DNA from: an uncultured cyanobacterium
Lineage (GTDB): Bacteria > Cyanobacteriota > Cyanobacteriia > Leptolyngbyales > Leptolyngbyaceae
Assembly (NCBI GenBank): GCA_963766075.1
Contig: CAVYAN010000109.1
Location: forward strand, 1 to 13,903
Direction: 5' to 3'
DNA: 13,903 nt
The position numbers are program-made. Position 1 is the stretch's first letter. Every line of letters begins with the position of its first letter. This document shows positions 6,001 to 12,000 of this stretch, in pieces.

Positions 6001-9000
6001 ATTTACCAACGGACTGGCCAAGAGACTGAAATCAAGGGCGGCAGACTCTTAGTGGTCCTCGAAAAATTGGGCTATCGCAAAGCCTTGCTTAGTTGAGATT
6101 CACCTTGAGAGTCAACAGGGAAGGGCGACATGCCGGAAACCGGGACAGAGAGAGCGGCAACGCGTCAGTTGTATCAAGCAATACTGTTTCTATAGAGATA
6201 TCTCTGATATGACTACTAGGACGTTTGAAGCCGTCCGATGGATGCGATTTCAGGCCGTAAAATTTATCGCCCCTAGGGTTCCGGTTCGGCTGTTGGGCGA
6301 ATGACTGGTCCGAGAGGGGCAAGCTGTAACGGTTTTTGCAGGATTGGCCAGACCGGCAGTTACACGGCGGGATAAAAGCCCGGGAGAGACGTTGTTTGCG
6401 ATCGCAGATGGCCTCTTTCTCGGGCTTTTAACGTTCGTCACTACAGGTCCTTTTGGGAGGTTAAGCTGATGACGGATAAGTCTTTCTATTCGGGGGAGGC
6501 TTAGATCTAGTGGGTGCAGCGTCGCATTAATGACAACTCGTTTTGGTATTCCCTGGTATTCCCGATAATGATAGAGTCCGCCAACACCATTCAGCAGCAA
6601 ACCGCGATCGCCAAGCTATCCGTCCAGAACGTCGGCAAGTCCTACAAAATGCGGGATAACGCCGTCACAGTATTAGAGAATGTCACGCTCCACATTCACG
6701 CCCGTGAGCTGATCTGCTTAGTAGGCTCCTCGGGCTGTGGTAAATCCACTCTCCTCAACATCATTGCGGGCTTAATCGCCCCATCCACAGGAGAAGTCTA
6801 CGTCGATGGGCAACAGGTGACGGGCCGCCCCGGCTCTGATCGCGGCATGGTCTTCCAAGGCTACACCCTCTATCCTTGGCTTACCGTAGCGCAGAATGTT
6901 GGGTTTGGCCTCCAGTTGCGCAACGTACCCAAGGCAGAACAACGGCAGCAAGTTGAGTACTTTCTAGAGGTGGTGGGGCTAACGCAGTTTGCGCGGGCCT
7001 ATCCCAAACAGCTATCCGGTGGCATGAAGCAACGGGTGGCGATCGCCCGCGCCCTCGCCAACGAACCCGCCCTGCTGCTCATGGATGAGCCCTTTGGAGC
7101 CCTGGACGCCCAGACCAAAGAGCAAATGCAACAGTTTTTGTTGGAATTGTGGGAGAAAACCCATGTCACGATTTTGATGATTACCCACGATGTTGAAGAA
7201 GCAATTTACCTATCCCAACGGGTCTATGTAATGCAATCACGGCCTGGACGAATTCATCAAGAAGTAAGTGTGAACTTACCCACCCACCGAAATTTAGCTA
7301 TTAAACTAGCGAATGAGTTTGTCCAGATCAAACGTCAAGTCCTAGAGGCTCTGTGGGATCAGTCTTGATACTGCTGCCCCGATTTTCTCTGGATTACGCC
7401 TTGATTGATCACCCATCAGATTTGTTCCCTAATTTATTACCTATCGGATGCCCCATCCATGTTTAAGTTCCTGCGAAATCGGCTTACCCCCATCTGGTCA
7501 CGTATGGGATTGGCGCTAGCCGCCCTGTTTCTGACAGTTGCCTGTTCCACCCCAAAGAATCCCCTTTCACCCGTTCCCCTTAACTCTAGCACCAATAACT
7601 GGGTGGGTCTTACCGGTCATTACATTGCCAACGCCAAAGACTTCTTTAGAAAGGAAGGCGTCTTGGTCAAGGACTCCTTCTTCGCCGTCGAGGGTGAACA
7701 ACAAGCGGCCTTTATCGCGAAAAAAGTCGATATTGCTTGGTTCACCTCTGGGTCGGCCATCCAGGTTGCAGCCAAAGACCCCACCGCCAAAATTATCTAT
7801 TTAATTGACTATTCCAATGGGGGCGATGGCATCCTTGGCCGGGGGATTCAATCCCCCCAAGACGTGAAAGGCAAAACCATCGCATGCGAGAACATTCTGT
7901 TTGAGAAAGTACTGCTGCGGGCCTATTTGAATAAAGGGGGCCTAACCGAAAAGGATGTCACCATTCAAGACATGCCAGCCGCCGATGCGGCCACGGCCTT
8001 TGCCTCCAAAAAAGTGGATATCGCCGTCAGCTATGAGCCCTATTTACGCCAAGCTGCGAAGTTGGGTGGCGGAGAAGTGATCTTTTCCACCGCCAATACG
8101 AATCTAGTTGCCGATGTGGTGATGGTGCATGACTCTGTGTTGCAATCTCGCAGGGCCGATTTAAAAAATTATTTCAAGGCTGTCGATAAAGCCGTCAAGT
8201 TGGCGATCGCCGCCGATCCAGAAGCCATGAAAATCACGGCAGATACCTTGGGTTCTTCGGCGGAAGAGGTCAAACAACAATTGAAATTTGTCAAACTATT
8301 TGATGTCGAAGGCAATAAAACCGTTGCTTTTAAAAAGGACAATCCCAATAGCTTAATCGGGAATTTGGAATTGGTTGCCAAGGCAGCCTACGATTTCAAG
8401 ATAATTTCCAAACCGTTATCGGTTGATCAACTCTACGATGATTCGATTATCAAAGAGCTGTAACTTCAACGGCGGCTATCGAGGGGCGACCTTGCCCCCT
8501 CGAGTTTCCTCCGTTCAGGCAATGTCTTCATAGCAAGCAAATAGTGAATTGGGAGCATTCACCTCTATTATCTATATTGACAACAGTTACCGAGCTTATC
8601 ATCGGATTTATCATCTACCGGATCCCCATTTATGCCTAGATTTCTTCGCAACCGGTTCACCTCTGCTTGGTCACTGATAGGACTGACGCTAGTCTCTCTA
8701 TTTCTGACGGTTGCCTGCACCACTCAGAATGCCCCTCAGTCCACGCCCCTTAACTCGGGTACCAATAACTGGGTGGGCTACACCGGTCATCACATTGCCG
8801 TCGGTAAAGGCTTCTTCAAAGAGCAGAACGTCCCTGTACAGGATTTCTTCTTCTCTAGTGAGAGTGAAGAACAAACGGCCTTTCTCGCTAAAAAACTTGA
8901 TCTGGCTTGGTTCACCTCTGGGACTGCCGTACAGGTCGCGGCCCAAGACCCCACCGCCAAAATTATCTATTTGATTGACTATTCCAATGGGGGCGATGGC

Positions 9001-12000
9001 ATCATTGGGCGGGGGATTAAGTCTCCTGCAGATGCGAAAGGCAAGACCATTGCGCGGGAGGACATTCTGTTTGAAAAGGTGCTGTTGCGGGCCTATTTGA
9101 ACAAGGGCGGCCTGACCGAGAAGGATGTCACCATCAAGTCCATGCCGGCTGCCGATGCCGCTACCGCCTTTGCTGCCAAGCAAGTAGATATTGCCGTTAG
9201 CTATGAGCCCTATCTCCGCAAAGCCGCGAAGTTGGGCGGCGGAGAGGTGATCTTTTCTACAGCCAACACCAACCTGATCGCGGATGTGGTGATGGTCCAT
9301 GAGGATGTGTTGAAGTCCCGCAAGGCCGATTTACAAACTTACTTTAAGGCCGTGGATAAAGCCGTCAAATTGGCGATCGCGGCGGATCCAGAAGCCATGA
9401 AAATTACGGGAGATAAGCTAGGCATTTCGGCGGATGAGGTTAAGGAACAATTAAAATTGGTGAAGCTTTTTGATGTCGATGGCAATAAAACCGTTGGCTT
9501 TAACAAGGATAATCCCAGTAATTTAAAGGGGAATTTGGAATTGAATGCCAAGGCAGCCTACGATTTCAAAATAATTTCCAAACCGCTGTCCGTTGATCAA
9601 CTCTACGATGATTCGATTATCAAAGGGCTGTAACTTTAGCTGCATCAATCAGGGGGCGAACTTGCCCCCCAAAATTCCCTCCTTTCAGATAAACAGACTG
9701 CAATCATGGCTGAAACACTGACCCCGGAATTACAAACTCTAAAAACGTCTCTGGAAGCCCAAGGCGTGAAATATGCCCTAGCCAGCTTTGTCGATTTGCA
9801 TGGCATGAGCAAAGCCAAAGCCGTGCCCCTGGCCCACCTGGGACAGATGATGGCTGGATCGGAACTGTTCACGGGGGCCGCCTTGGATGGGGTACCCCAG
9901 GATGTTAGCGATGAGGAAGTCTCTGCCCGCCCTGATCTTAGCTCTGCCACCATTCTGCCCTGGCAGCCCGAATTAGTCTGGTTTGCCAGTGATTTGTATC
10001 TCAAAGGCCAACCCTTTGCCGCCTGTTGCCGACACATTCTGAAAACCGTTCTAGCCGAAGCCGCTCAGATGGGATTTACCTTCAACCTCGGCATTGAAAC
10101 GGAGTTTTTCATTCTCAAGGAAACATCGGCGGGCGAGGCGGTGCCCGTGAGCGATCGCGATACTCTGGCGAAACCCTGCTACGACCTCCAGGGCTTGCTC
10201 GACAATTATCCCTGGGTTACCGAAATTGTTGAGGCCATGAACCAGTTGGGCTGGGATGTTTATTCCTTCGATCATGAAGATGCCAATGGTCAGTTTGAAA
10301 CCGATTTTGGGTATTGTGATGCCCTGAAAATGGGCGATCGCATTGCCTTCTTCCGTCTCATGGTCAAGGAAATTGCCCGCAAGCATGGCTACTTTGCCAG
10401 CTTTATGCCCAAGCCCTTTGCCAATCGCTCCGGCAGTGGGGCGCACTACAACATGTCCCTAGCCGACATCACCACGGGAAAAAACCTGTTTTATAACGCG
10501 GACGACAGTCGTGGATGCCAGCTTTCTCAACTTGGCTATCAGTTTATCGCGGGCATTCTTCGCCATGCGCCCGCGATCTGTGCCGTGATTGCCCCCACGG
10601 TGAACAGCTATAAACGCTTGGTCGCACGCGGCAGCATGTCCGGCTTTACCTGGGCTCCCGTGTATATGTGCTATGGCAATAATAATCGCACCAATATGTT
10701 GCGGATTCCCCTGGCGGGCGGGCGAGTCGAATGTCGGGCCGCCGATATTTCCAGCAATGTTTATCTGGGGGCAGCCATGCTGTTGGCCGCGGGCTTAGAA
10801 GGCATTCGCGAGCAGTTGGATCCGGGGGAGCCGCATACGGAAAATATGTATACCCACTCGCCGCAAGCGTTGACCGAGATGGGGATTGGCTGTTTGCCGC
10901 GCACCCTAGGGGAGGCGATCGCCGCATTTGCCCAGGATCCCTTCAGTCAAAAAGTCATGGGCGATTTGATGTACCACTCCTACGTGGACTATAAAACCCA
11001 GGAATGGCAGGACTACCACAATCACATTTCGGATTGGGAACGGCAACGCTACTTGAAGTTTTTCTAACTGGAGATGCCCACCGTGATCACCCCCTCAACG
11101 CCCATTCCCCCAAGCAGTCGCCAGCACACCTACTTGCAACCCTCCGTATTTTGGAGCATTCGCCAAGGCTTCCCGAAGCGGCTATCGTTTTTGATCGTGA
11201 GTCTGGCGCTGGCCATACCGCTGGTGTTTTGGTCAATCTTCAGTTACTCCGGGCTGGTGACGCCGATCTTCCTGCCTACCCCCACGGCGGTGTTGCAGGC
11301 TGGACTGAAAATGTTCGCTGAAAATAACCTGCTGCTGGATATCCTGGTTAGCAGTGGCCGGGTACTGGCGGGGTTTCTGGTGGCCGCTCTCATCGGTGTG
11401 CCCATCGGCATTGCGATGGGCACGTTTTACAGTATGGACAGTCTGTTTGCCCCATTGGTGGGCACCGTGCGCTATATGCCCGTCACCGCTTTTGTGCCGT
11501 TGATTATCATTTGGGTGGGGCTGGGTGAAGCCTCCAAGGTGCTGATCATCATGCTGGGTGTTGTGTTGTATAACGCGATCATGATTGCCGACGCTGTGAA
11601 GTTTATCCCCAGTGAAATGATTAATGTGGCCTATACGCTGGGTGGCAATCGCTGGGATGTTCTGTTCCGCGTCATTGTGCCTGCGGCGTTTCCCAGCGTG
11701 CTCGATACGCTGCGGGTCAATATTTCCGGAGCATGGAATTTTTTAGTGATTGCGGAATTAGTGGCGGCGCAAAATGGCATTGGATTCAAAATCATTCAGG
11801 CCCAGCGCTTTCTGCAAACCGATAAAGTGCTCTTCTGCATTATTTTAATTGGCCTGATTGGCTTAATCATCGACTACGGGCTGAAATTTCTGTCGCAAAA
11901 GCTCACTCCCTGGGCGGATCAAACCCGCCATTAAGCCTGCATGCTGGTCAGCGCTCAACCACTGGCACAGTCCGAACCCTCAAAGCCTGATTCTAATTTC

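Follow-up and report, generated by a model that had tools for sequence, protein, structure and literature searches.

Why would a guanidine riboswitch precede a gene of the glutamine synthetase (GS) family? This arrangement occurs in a stretch of 13,903 nt (contig CAVYAN010000109.1, positions 1 to 13,903; hereafter the window) from an uncultured cyanobacterium of the Leptolyngbyaceae. It includes the second guanidine-I copy of this genome. The other (C86:41932-42088, - strand) heads the genes gdmH-ghaA-ghaB-gimA-permease-ATPase.

Leader and importer genes of the operon

Within the window a single Rfam family passes its threshold: RF00442, the guanidine-I riboswitch. Its match at 6262-6388 covers the whole model (1-107) with the same 77.5 bits that the initial annotation had given (E 9.9e-13; cut-off 63 bits). 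Open frames and family matches also agree with the five-gene operon described there. All five genes lie 3' of the aptamer on the + strand and encode an ABC ATPase, two binding proteins, a GS-family ligase of 453 aa (here GSL) and a permease:

6171..6184, no strand assigned: predicted NtcA-type palindrome GTATCAAGCAATAC (GTA-N8-TAC), perfect; the aptamer begins 78 nt downstream
6262..6388, + strand: guanidine-I riboswitch aptamer (Rfam RF00442)
6373..6430, + strand: expression platform, a terminator hairpin followed by UUUU (fold of 6366-6436)
6514..7368, + strand: ABC transporter ATPase, NitT/TauT type (ABC_tran 3.9e-35); probable start at the in-frame ATG at 6568
7405..8463, + strand: substrate-binding lipoprotein 1, NMT1/SsuA family (family match and sequence comparison); probable start at 7459
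8632..9633, + strand: substrate-binding lipoprotein 2, NMT1/SsuA family, tandem duplicate of lipoprotein 1 (78% identical)
9706..11067, + strand: GSL, GS-family ATP-dependent glutamate ligase, Gln-synt_C (TIGR03105, PDB matches, residues)
11074..11934, + strand: ABC permease (BPD_transp_1 5.4e-25), 7 nt after the ligase stop

As read from the sequence, the 5' arm of the terminator is the 3' strand of the aptamer (AAAAGCCCGGGAGAG), and the hairpin overlaps the aptamer. The region 6366-6436 folds with -39.2 kcal/mol (z -6.45), a value reached by none of 200 shuffled sequences. Since the two structures share a strand, an ON switch is predicted. Upstream, the palindrome is the single match to GTAN8TAC in the window (0.74 expected). 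Of the 22 guanidine-I riboswitches of the loci examined, 7 likewise have a perfect NtcA-type site in the 320 nt upstream of them; the background is 0.04 sites for a stretch of this length. The part of PMC12704784 consulted places gdmH and gimA under NtcA control. The palindrome is likely to be the nitrogen-control site of the operon promoter.

The ATPase and the permease are respectively 56% and 40% identical to the proteins in gimC and gimB position of the same genome. The two binding proteins are paralogues, as proposed initially; however, their identity to the genome's own GimA is 24-30% rather than about 31%. The guanidinium sites of GimA and GdmH consist of aromatic residues plus two Asp, according to the consulted part of PMC12704784. 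At the predicted cage positions GimA carries W, W, D, F, D, binding protein 1 W, L, D, Y, D and binding protein 2 W, Y, D, Y, D. Three of the five residues (Trp and two Asp) are therefore kept, with aromatic replacements at the others apart from the Leu of protein 1. None of the five genes of the operon encodes a hydrolase.

Residues and phylogeny of the ligase

GSL passes the NCBIfam model TIGR03105 with 580.7 bits (cut-off 469.6) and stays below the cut-off of the GlnA model TIGR00653 (335 against 429). The former evidently also covers amine ligases. Public annotations of GSL orthologues read 'type III glutamate-ammonia ligase'. The top PDB sequence match is the glutamate-methylamine ligase 9qur (E 6.5e-125), against about 1e-37 for E. 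coli-type GS, the same values as found initially; RhGmaS of Rhodovulum (7cql) is matched at E 5.4e-97.

A signature of 13 residues (K38, T56, Y159, S187, D189, E191, E198, D200, F201, N249, W316, R328, R333) is conserved in 76 of the 77 full-length orthologues, which represent six phyla, and is the same across all locus contexts. At the ammonium site, Thr56 replaces Asp50' and Trp316 the flap Glu. The catalytic Asp177, Glu186 and Arg312 of GmaS are retained as D189, E198 and R328. Seven amine-pocket residues of GmaS are named in the portion of PMC7948447 consulted: GSL retains Lys30', Tyr147 and Glu179, while two others differ from both solved GmaS (Gln175 to Ser187, Asn188 to Asp200), so that its pocket is less filled and more acidic. 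GSL also has Phe for Trp189 of GmaS (Tyr in 9qur) and Asn for His at position 249. However, Asp200, Phe201 and Asn249 are also found in true GS and are thus not unique to a guanidine site.

The GSL clade is separate from GmaS with 99% SH-like support, and eight of eight paralogues lack the signature and keep the Gln and Asn of the GmaS pocket. PDB matches, residues and tree all support the earlier view that the nearest enzyme is glutamate-methylamine ligase and not the housekeeping GS. Judged by these characters, GSL is no housekeeping GS and has the residue set of an amine ligase, but represents a distinct orthogroup rather than a plain GmaS. The genome holds four further GS-family genes. GlnA and GlnN are present, and a gene on C26, 44% identical to GSL, scores 622 bits against the GmaS structure 7cql. 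The gene g01003, previously taken for a true GlnT, is instead closest to a characterised GmaS.

Genomic contexts and distribution of orthologues

The ligase neighbourhood was compared in 80 orthologue loci (81 with the window). A guanidine-I or -II riboswitch lies within 10 kb of the ligase in 22 of the 80, a lower rate than the 17 of 34 reported before. The recurrence itself holds: 20 of 50 genomes have a guanidine-I riboswitch within 10 kb of GSL, whereas the 41 GmaS/GlnT-like paralogue hits from these genomes include none that lies so close to one, and the guanidine link extends over five phyla and two unrelated aptamer classes. Membership of the ligase in riboswitch operons stands only in part. 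The riboswitch is upstream and co-directional in 13 of the 22 riboswitch loci, with the ligase as first gene 3' of it in L012 and L032 (class I) and L051 (class II). In the other 9 it does not precede the ligase, and no riboswitch was found in 21 Verrucomicrobiota loci although guanidine carboxylase genes are present there. In seven cyanobacterial loci it heads only a binding-protein gene, the ligase lying upstream of the latter.

GdmH or guanidine-carboxylase genes occur in 19 of the 80 loci, and guanidine carboxylase/CgdAB genes neighbour the ligase in 13. In L028, L030, L033, L035 and L036 it separates ghaA from ghaB within a gdmH operon, and it is also found behind gimABC-type importers. 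In L052 a single riboswitch operon combines it with creatininase-cgdA-carboxylase-cgdB, while in L037 and L038 it diverges from a guanidine-II-controlled cgdAB-carboxylase operon. An ABC transporter gene is adjacent in 33 of 80 loci, and ABC genes lie within 3.5 kb in 57. Hydrolase-family genes are found within 400 nt in 52 of the 80, belonging in 34 to the creatininase family; this partner matches P. putida creatininase at 2e-27. The characterised creatininase substrate is a cyclic acylguanidine. The sole creatininase-family gene of our genome is only 26-32% identical to the ligase-linked proteins.

The earlier claim that the ligase sits among guanidine-catabolic genes is valid in several phyla, but in 15 of the 81 loci, counting the window, no neighbouring gene is related to guanidine. 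Seven of these are among eight loci where the ligase, with identical signature, is paired with a GATase1 hydrolase; seven of the eight adjoin a second GS-like gene, some with alcohol and aldehyde dehydrogenase genes in addition. A Rieske oxygenase adjoins the ligase in L047 and L048. Such layouts are typical of alkyl- or arylamine catabolism. Ligase loci of Verrucomicrobiota also contain a GFA-family gene and one for a GbcA-like Rieske oxygenase, which suggests N-demethylation and formaldehyde. The initial observation is confirmed; its interpretation is partly supported.

GSL is a rare accessory. It is absent from 150 evenly sampled cyanobacterial genomes, 38 of which carry a guanidine-I riboswitch. 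It is not needed for guanidine use, since it is rare and Synechocystis, which lacks it, can grow on guanidine (PMC12704784, in the part consulted). Among the 80 genomes with GSL, GdmH is found in 26 and DUF1989 in 58, and nearly all hold one or the other. In G063, a single 2.77-Mb chromosome record, the ligase is present and GdmH, DUF1989 and a guanidine-I match were not found.

Possible substrates and relation to known systems

The operon may represent a second guanidine-induced uptake-and-capture unit. Transcription would probably start from an NtcA-dependent promoter in response to nitrogen limitation. In the absence of guanidine the leader would form the terminator, while the guanidine-bound aptamer would hold the shared strand and let the polymerase read on. 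The products would be GSL and an ABC importer of the NitT/TauT type, which has two binding lipoproteins and may take up guanidine or something closely similar. As in every GS-family enzyme, GSL would convert glutamate and ATP to gamma-glutamyl phosphate, with which it would then acylate an amine nucleophile other than ammonium. Our preferred, though tentative, reading is that this nucleophile is guanidine taken up by the importer, or a closely similar guanidino compound such as methylguanidine, giving a gamma-glutamyl (acyl) guanidine for later cleavage. Speaking for this reading are the riboswitch linkage, the siting among guanidine genes, the altered amine pocket, the frequent hydrolase partners and the cage residues of the binding proteins. 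Like carboxylation in the guanidine carboxylase/CgdAB route, acylation would open the inert guanidinium carbon to a partner hydrolase; it would also reduce free toxic guanidinium. Creatininase-family, MBL, isochorismatase-like and GATase1 proteins are candidate hydrolases in other loci; in our genome GdmH or an unlinked enzyme may fulfil this role. Guanidinium, with a pKa near 13.6, is however a poor nucleophile, and a second guanidine consumer looks redundant where nearly all GSL genomes hold GdmH or DUF1989. The missing hydrolase gene in the operon, the rarity of GSL, the loci with no guanidine-related gene nearby or with layouts of amine catabolism, the riboswitches that do not precede the ligase and the pocket residues shared with true GS also speak against this reading. 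A reaction of this kind is not named in the literature searched. The presence of GSL among guanidine-breakdown genes of several phyla hints at an undescribed step of guanidine use.

We consider it somewhat less likely that GSL joins glutamate to a different small amine from the catabolism of guanidine compounds, guanidine being the inducing signal only. Candidates are an alkylamine, methylguanidine, methylamine derived from it, and compounds of the hydroxylamine or hydrazine type. Enzymes encoded nearby (Rieske, GATase1 or creatininase family) would then oxidise or hydrolyse the gamma-glutamyl product, in line with known gamma-glutamylation pathways. The closest characterised enzymes are indeed methylamine ligases that tolerate many amines, and L041-L048 and L070 (GATase1, Rieske, FeADH with aldehyde dehydrogenase) resemble Puu/Ipu/aniline-type pathways; the Verrucomicrobiota layout and G063 point the same way. 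However, one signature in all contexts leads us to expect one head group, the riboswitches sense free guanidine, and the importer partners are GimA-like with a guanidinium cage. Methylamine is moreover already covered by a canonical-pocket GmaS paralogue, present in 8 of 8 cases examined and in most of the 50 genomes, and no N-methylglutamate-pathway gene is among the gene families annotated in the loci.

An extra ammonium-assimilating GS, perhaps guanidinium-tolerant and co-induced to capture ammonium from the GdmH or carboxylase route, would fit the co-occurrence of GdmH or CgdAB in nearly all genomes, the gdmH operons that include the ligase, the TIGR03105 match and the residues shared with true GS. 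A GS gene beside gdmH in Synechococcus WH8020 is read as nitrogen assimilation in the consulted part of the bioRxiv version of the GdmH/GimABC paper. This nevertheless seems improbable: the Asp50' and flap Glu that bind and deprotonate ammonium are lost in 76 of 77 orthologues, RhGmaS, with the same architecture, has a far higher Km for NH4Cl than for methylamine (PMC7948447, in the part consulted), the GlnA model is not passed, GlnA and GlnN already exist in the genome, and the frequent hydrolase partner is left unexplained. Least credible by far is a ligase that merely travels with NitT/TauT-type transporter genes, themselves often riboswitch-controlled. The frequent ABC neighbours and the seven cyanobacterial loci with the ligase upstream agree with it, but not the three loci where the ligase directly follows the switch, its insertion between maturase genes ghaA and ghaB in five loci, its co-transcription with carboxylase genes in L052, or the breadth of phyla and aptamer classes.

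Like GmaS (9qur, 7cql), GSL lacks Asp50' and has Trp for the flap Glu. Unlike GmaS, it is found under guanidine riboswitches and among guanidine genes instead of N-methylglutamate-pathway genes. It shares TIGR03105 with GlnT, or 'type III glutamate-ammonia ligase', but this name implies an ammonium substrate whose site residues GSL is missing. In the gamma-glutamylation pathways PuuA/PuuD, IpuC/IpuF and aniline dioxygenase TdnQ/TdnT, a GS-like ligase is combined with a hydrolase, which is frequently a GATase1, and in some cases with a Rieske oxygenase; NpaA1 is reportedly counted among such systems for amines. To our knowledge, guanidine control is described for none of their ligases. The combination recurs in L041-L048 and L070, but the ligases of the known pathways are distant from GSL (PDB 4hpp, E 1.7e-24). 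The window operon shares a guanidine-I riboswitch, an NtcA-type site, a NitT/TauT importer and a Trp plus two-Asp site with the gdmH-ghaAB-gimABC locus as presented in the consulted part of PMC12704784, where the terms ligase, GS-like and glnT do not occur. It differs from that locus by the absence of gdmH and gha genes, by duplicated, divergent binding proteins with Tyr or Leu at two cage positions, and by the presence of a ligase not described there. Guanidine carboxylase with the carboxyguanidine deiminase CgdAB was reportedly described by Schneider et al. in 2020. The scheme proposed for GSL follows a similar logic, in that guanidine would be N-acylated at the expense of ATP and the activated product then hydrolysed; however, the carboxylase belongs to the biotin carboxylase family whereas GSL has the GS fold, and a gamma-glutamyl rather than a carboxyl group would be transferred.

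The riboswitch leader and its operon

The guanidine-I riboswitch is the only Rfam family above threshold in the window. Three elements make up its leader:

6171-6184: NtcA-type palindrome GTA-N8-TAC, GTATCAAGCAATAC, 78 nt upstream of the aptamer
6262-6388, + strand: guanidine-I riboswitch aptamer (RF00442), 77.5 bits against a cut-off of 63, model positions 1-107 of 107
6373-6430: terminator hairpin, overlapping the 3' strand of aptamer P3 and followed by a short U run

The strand closing the aptamer, AAAAGCCCGGGAGAG, is able to pair alternatively with CUCUUUCUCGGGCUUUU, which gives the long hairpin 6373-6430. 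Its stability (-39.2 kcal/mol, z -6.45) was equalled in none of 200 shuffles. Transcriptional ON switches are usually laid out in this way, with a hairpin that competes with the aptamer, and a response to guanidine is predicted from this arrangement. The palindrome is the sole GTA-N8-TAC match of the window. In related loci, 7 of 22 guanidine-I riboswitches carry a perfect match within 320 nt upstream; the background rate is 0.04 in a stretch of that length. Passages of PMC12704784 place Synechocystis gdmH and gimA under NtcA control. The putative NtcA-type site and the aptamer together suggest that nitrogen status and guanidine both exert control.

The stretch from the terminator to the ATPase gene holds a short frame of 11 codons (6469-6504, ATG to TAG) with GGGAGG ahead of it. 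Behind this frame, and ahead of the annotated GTG start of the ATPase, comes a second purine-rich stretch, GGGGGAGG. The true start of the ATPase is more likely the in-frame ATG at 6568.

As the initial annotation stated, the riboswitch precedes five co-directional genes. They encode an ABC ATPase, two NMT1/SsuA-family lipoprotein binding proteins (SBP1, 7405-8463; SBP2, 8632-9633), the 453-aa glutamine-synthetase-family ligase studied here (GSL, 9706-11067, + strand) and a permease. Intergenic gaps range from 7 to 169 nt, no convincing internal terminator was found within the operon, and its end faces a convergent GNAT gene. Among sequencing runs, no RNA data set was listed as containing the sequence, and the two runs listed each share about 5% of its words. 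A hydrolase gene is absent from the operon. The NitT/TauT-type ATPase, permease and NMT1/SsuA-family binding proteins reproduce the composition of the GimABC guanidine importer. Identity to the counterparts in the gim locus of the same genome is 56% for the ATPase and 40% for the permease. This locus, on contig C86, lies behind a second guanidine-I riboswitch in the order gdmH-ghaA-ghaB-gimA-permease-ATPase, in agreement with the earlier description, which proved right on every point checked; the genome is estimated to be 85% complete.

SBP1 and SBP2 are tandem duplicates (7405-9633, 78% identical). The predicted guanidinium cage of GimA comprises W59, W62, D135, F205 and D233 (passages of PMC12704784). 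With columns assigned by spacing and a constant offset of about 50 rather than from the Sll1080 sequence, these positions read W,W,D,F,D in the genome's own GimA, W,L,D,Y,D in SBP1 and W,Y,D,Y,D in SBP2. By these spacing-based columns, both window proteins would keep the stacking Trp and the two Asp of GimA, the remaining two cage positions being Tyr or Leu. They differ from each other at a single predicted cage position (Leu versus Tyr).

The remaining genes of the window are the following:

3-608: NOV_C-domain frame running off the left end
840-1130, + strand: PemK/MazF-type toxin gene
2582-2887, + strand: HI1420-downstream-type antidote gene
3305-5701, - strand: MgsA/RarA-type AAA ATPase, 798 aa (NF009881, 1186.7 bits)
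11955-13766, - strand: GNAT acetyltransferase gene and DsbD_2/ferric-reductase-like (MsrQ-like) fusion gene, convergent, behind the operon

The toxin and antidote genes probably belong to two toxin-antitoxin modules. The MgsA/RarA-type protein has a C-terminal methyltransferase-like domain (Methyltransf_31, 4.7e-05). Neither the GNAT nor the DsbD_2-fusion gene is kept beside the ligase in other loci.

Residues and phylogeny of the ligase

GSL is a Gln-synt_C protein (PF00120, 7.9e-100) in which the metal, ATP and glutamate ligands E131, E133, E191, E198, H247, R328 and R333 are invariant. Among solved structures, GSL comes closest to two glutamate-methylamine ligases, 9qur (E 6.5e-125) and Rhodovulum GmaS (RhGmaS, PDB 7cql; 5.4e-97), followed by GSI-alpha (about 1e-78) and then E. 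coli-type GS (about 1e-37). Together with the loss of the ammonium-site residues, this ranking bears out the initial view that the ligase is nearest to glutamate-methylamine ligase and not to the housekeeping GS. Orthologues are publicly named glutamine synthetase or type III glutamate-ammonia ligase. GSL passes the corresponding NCBIfam profile TIGR03105 (GlnT; 580.7 against 469.6), a membership by model alone that is silent on substrate, and falls below the TIGR00653 (GlnA) cut-off (335.4 against 429.15).

Functional residues of RhGmaS, taken from passages of PMC7948447, were transferred to GSL through HMMER alignments (the 7cql chain index is the paper number plus 20). Thr56 stands at the position of the ammonium-binding Asp50' of GS (Asp53' in B. 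subtilis GS, Ala48' in RhGmaS) and is Thr in all 77 full-length orthologues. Trp316 occupies the position of the catalytic flap Glu (Glu304 in B. subtilis, Glu327 in E. coli), which is Trp300 in RhGmaS. The catalytic Asp177, Glu186 and Arg312 of RhGmaS are retained as D189, E198 and R328. Because of T56, W316 and these three retained residues, GSL is predicted to carry out amine-ligase chemistry and not that of an ammonium GS. The methylamine pocket described in the same passages consists of Tyr147, Gln175, Asp177, Glu179, Glu186, Asn188 and Lys30'. Five of the seven are retained (Y159, D189, E191, E198, K38'). In contrast to both solved GmaS, GSL has Ser187 for Gln175 and Asp200 for Asn188.

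These positions were combined into a 13-residue signature (K38, T56, Y159, S187, D189, E191, E198, D200, F201, N249, W316, R328, R333), identical in 76 of the 77 full-length orthologues from 80 loci, a count that omits three partial genes and one partial second copy. The exception, at 10001-11362 of locus L057, is a 60%-identical orthologue lacking the signature (Glu189, Asn200, Gly316), with no guanidine-related neighbours within the fetched flank. All eight paralogues examined (40-44% identity, from those loci or the genome) have Gln and Asn at positions 187 and 200; their position 201 is Trp or Tyr, and 249 is His. Many true GS share Asp200, Phe201 and Asn249, and it is the combination that makes the signature, no single residue being claimed as unique to GSL.

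In a FastTree phylogeny of 115 GS-family proteins, for which supports are SH-like only, 24 rows make up the GSL clade (99% support). Next to it stand, among others, two 46%-identical representatives bearing the same signature, and the next group contains P0128, a protein scoring 567 bits against 9qur. The 44%-identical paralogue on contig C26 of the same genome scores 622 bits against RhGmaS. A canonical GmaS-type enzyme is thus already present in the genome alongside GlnA and GlnN. N-methylglutamate pathway genes are absent from the window. Within the GmaS/GlnT branch of the GS family, GSL is thus a new and sharply delimited variant.

Association with guanidine loci

The genomic context of GSL was compared across 80 loci holding an orthologue (51-90% identity), with flanks of at most 10 kb and gene maps built by homology. 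Guanidine-I riboswitches were located genome-wide; 63 loci were scanned with all of Rfam, the other 17 being already guanidine-I positive. Several ORFs without a family in GC-rich loci are probably antisense-frame artefacts. A guanidine riboswitch lies within the fetched flank of 22 of the 80 loci: 17/43 in Cyanobacteriota, 3/10 in Pseudomonadota, 2/2 in Planctomycetota, and 0/3, 0/21 and 0/1 in Actinomycetota, Verrucomicrobiota and Abditibacteriota. Class I and class II neighbours in the first three phyla had been reported initially and are found again; there GSL occurs under these riboswitches and inside gdmH, gimABC and carboxylase clusters. It adjoins carboxylase genes in Verrucomicrobiota and Actinomycetota as well. 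The switch is upstream of and co-directional with the ligase in 13 loci, which is 10 of the 50 loci having at least 5 kb of upstream sequence, and is not ahead of it in nine. The ligase is the first gene behind the switch in L012 and L032 (class I) and in L051 (class II, 15-54 nt upstream). The main arrangements are as follows.

Gene orders around GSL (L numbers are orthologue loci)
Riboswitch-ATPase-binding protein-(MBL)-GSL-permease-(isochorismatase-like): window, L011, L013, L016; L014 with gdmH-ghaAB ahead
Riboswitch-gdmH-ghaA-GSL-ghaB-gimA-permease-ATPase: L030, L035, L036; partial in L028, L033
Riboswitch-GSL-gimA-permease-ATPase: L012
GSL, antisense permease, ATPase, riboswitch, binding protein: seven cyanobacterial genomes
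Riboswitch I-gimABC-creatininase family-GSL, with a guanidine-II-controlled cgdAB-carboxylase operon running divergently: L037, L038 (Thiofaba and a relative)
Riboswitch II-creatininase-GSL-cgdA-carboxylase-cgdB: L052
gimA-permease-ATPase-GSL-creatininase-GFA, no riboswitch: Verrucomicrobiota; some loci add a second transporter and a GbcA-like Rieske oxygenase, then NikR-cgdAB-carboxylase

None of 41 GmaS/GlnT-like paralogue matches lies within 10 kb of a guanidine-I riboswitch, against 20 of 50 for GSL in the same 50 genomes, which are 2-11 Mb in size and hold 0-3 such riboswitches each. The association of GSL with guanidine is real and well above chance. The initial description of the ligase as recurrent in guanidine-riboswitch operons holds in this respect (20/50 genomes against 0/41 paralogue matches). 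At E 1e-150, GSL is found in none of an even sample of 150 cyanobacterial genomes, 38 of which have a guanidine-I riboswitch. It is an accessory and not a core part of guanidine use, a rare companion of guanidine regulons rather than a general member.

An ABC gene adjoins the ligase in 33 of the 80 loci and lies within 3.5 kb in 57. The gdmH or gha genes occur in 6/80 loci and DUF1989 or carboxylase genes in 13/80. A hydrolase-family gene is found within 400 nt of the ligase in 52/80 loci: creatininase family (34), GATase1 (8), MetX-like alpha/beta hydrolase (6), MBL (4) or isochorismatase-like (1). The ligase-linked creatininase-family partner matches P. putida creatininase at 2e-27, scores below the NCBIfam creatininase cut-off and is a divergent member of that family. 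The genome's own sole creatininase-family gene (contig C118) was considered as the missing partner of GSL and rejected, being 26-32% identical to the ligase-linked ones. That the creatininase-ligase pair simply replaces allophanate hydrolase was ruled out because an allophanate hydrolase (Amidase + AH_C) accompanies the carboxylase in L084, as does an ORF of that sequence cluster in L037.

Some loci carry several switches. They lie at 4522-4570 (-) and 6277-6383 (+) in L037/L038, and at 7471-7589 (-), 13625-13757 (+) and 17100-17149 (+) in L045. In the Thiofaba-type and Derxia loci, guanidine-I and -II occur within a few kb, each class governing a different operon of the island. A NikR-family regulator gene is located ahead of cgdAB-carboxylase or beside the ligase in L065, L074, L077, L080, L081, L084 and L085. 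No riboswitch was found in these NikR-bearing loci (Verrucomicrobiota, some Pseudomonadota), where NikR may be a protein-based stand-in for the guanidine switch. In L060, from a gut actinobacterial MAG (Ellagibacter, Eggerthellaceae), genes for GSL, a MetX-like hydrolase, a sodium:solute symporter and cgdAB-carboxylase are consecutive.

Full-text searches, largely confined to literature outside subscription, returned no paper linking a GS-like ligase to guanidine riboswitches or catabolism, one passing remark excepted, and none using glutamylguanidine in four spellings. The remark stands in passages of the bioRxiv version of the GdmH/GimABC study, which describe Synechococcus WH8020 gdmH as flanked by glutamine synthetase and urea transporter genes. 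The terms 'ligase', 'GS-like' and 'glnT' are absent from the PNAS version (PMC12704784).

Candidate substrates and guanidine routes

Free guanidine has been recognised only recently as a bacterial metabolite and nitrogen source. To our knowledge, two routes for its breakdown are known, the carboxylase with CgdAB and the nickel hydrolase GdmH. In the CgdAB route guanidine is first carboxylated, an N-acylation that opens its carbon to the hydrolase. The substrate of characterised creatininase is a cyclic acylguanidine.

We tentatively propose that GSL moves a gamma-glutamyl group onto guanidine or a close guanidino compound. Guanidine would be a suitable acceptor because, with Gln replaced by Ser and Asn by Asp, the pocket should offer more space and be more acidic than in GmaS. 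By analogy, the ATP-dependent route also starts by N-acylating guanidine, and the GSL partner belongs to the family of an enzyme acting on an acylguanidine. A further analogy is provided by GimA and GdmH, where guanidinium is bound by aromatic residues plus two aspartates (passages of PMC12704784). Guanidine would be brought in by the importer, as the Trp and two Asp apparently shared with GimA in the spacing-based columns suggest. The product might go on to glutamine and urea or to gamma-glutamylurea and ammonium, or its formation may simply buffer toxic free guanidinium.

It is possible, if doubtful, that the substrate is another small amine. Eight loci (L039, L041-L044, L046, L048, L070) pair a signature-identical ligase with GATase1. 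Seven of these adjoin a divergent GmaS-like paralogue, some also with iron alcohol dehydrogenase and aldehyde dehydrogenase, and a Rieske oxygenase adjoins the ligase in L047 and L048. Such arrangements beside a GS-like ligase are known from alkyl- and arylamine catabolism. Nearly all ligase-bearing genomes also hold GdmH (26 of 80) or DUF1989 proteins (58 of 80). Ten show neither and are mostly incomplete MAGs; one of the ten, G063, has the GATase1 layout and is represented by a single chromosome record of 2.77 Mb. Ammonium is an unlikely substrate: passages of the bioRxiv version take the WH8020 glutamine synthetase beside gdmH as serving nitrogen assimilation, but in GSL Asp50' and the flap Glu are replaced by Thr56 and Trp316. 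Guanidine, transporter or creatininase neighbours are lacking in 15 of 81 loci (window included); given the riboswitch association, it is highly improbable that GSL has no functional tie to guanidine. What probability remains belongs to explanations outside these four.

Whichever amine is used, its identity would define the function of the creatininase-family partner (34/80 loci). Even with an amine other than guanidine, the name 'type III glutamate-ammonia ligase' disagrees with the absent ammonium site and is a widespread annotation to correct. At stake is whether GSL is an ordinary amine ligase or activates guanidine in a new way. For a step missing from the metabolism of guanidine or methylguanidine, GSL is a concrete candidate.

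More speculatively, GSL as a glutamate-guanidine ligase could open a third, ATP-driven route of guanidine capture. The partner cleaving gamma-glutamylguanidine might be a creatininase-family, MBL, isochorismatase-like or GATase1 protein, or a ureohydrolase such as GdmH. Cleavage at the activated guanidino carbon would pass one nitrogen straight into glutamine. If GSL does open such a capture route, it would be a high-affinity counterpart of GdmH, related to it as GS is to glutamate dehydrogenase.
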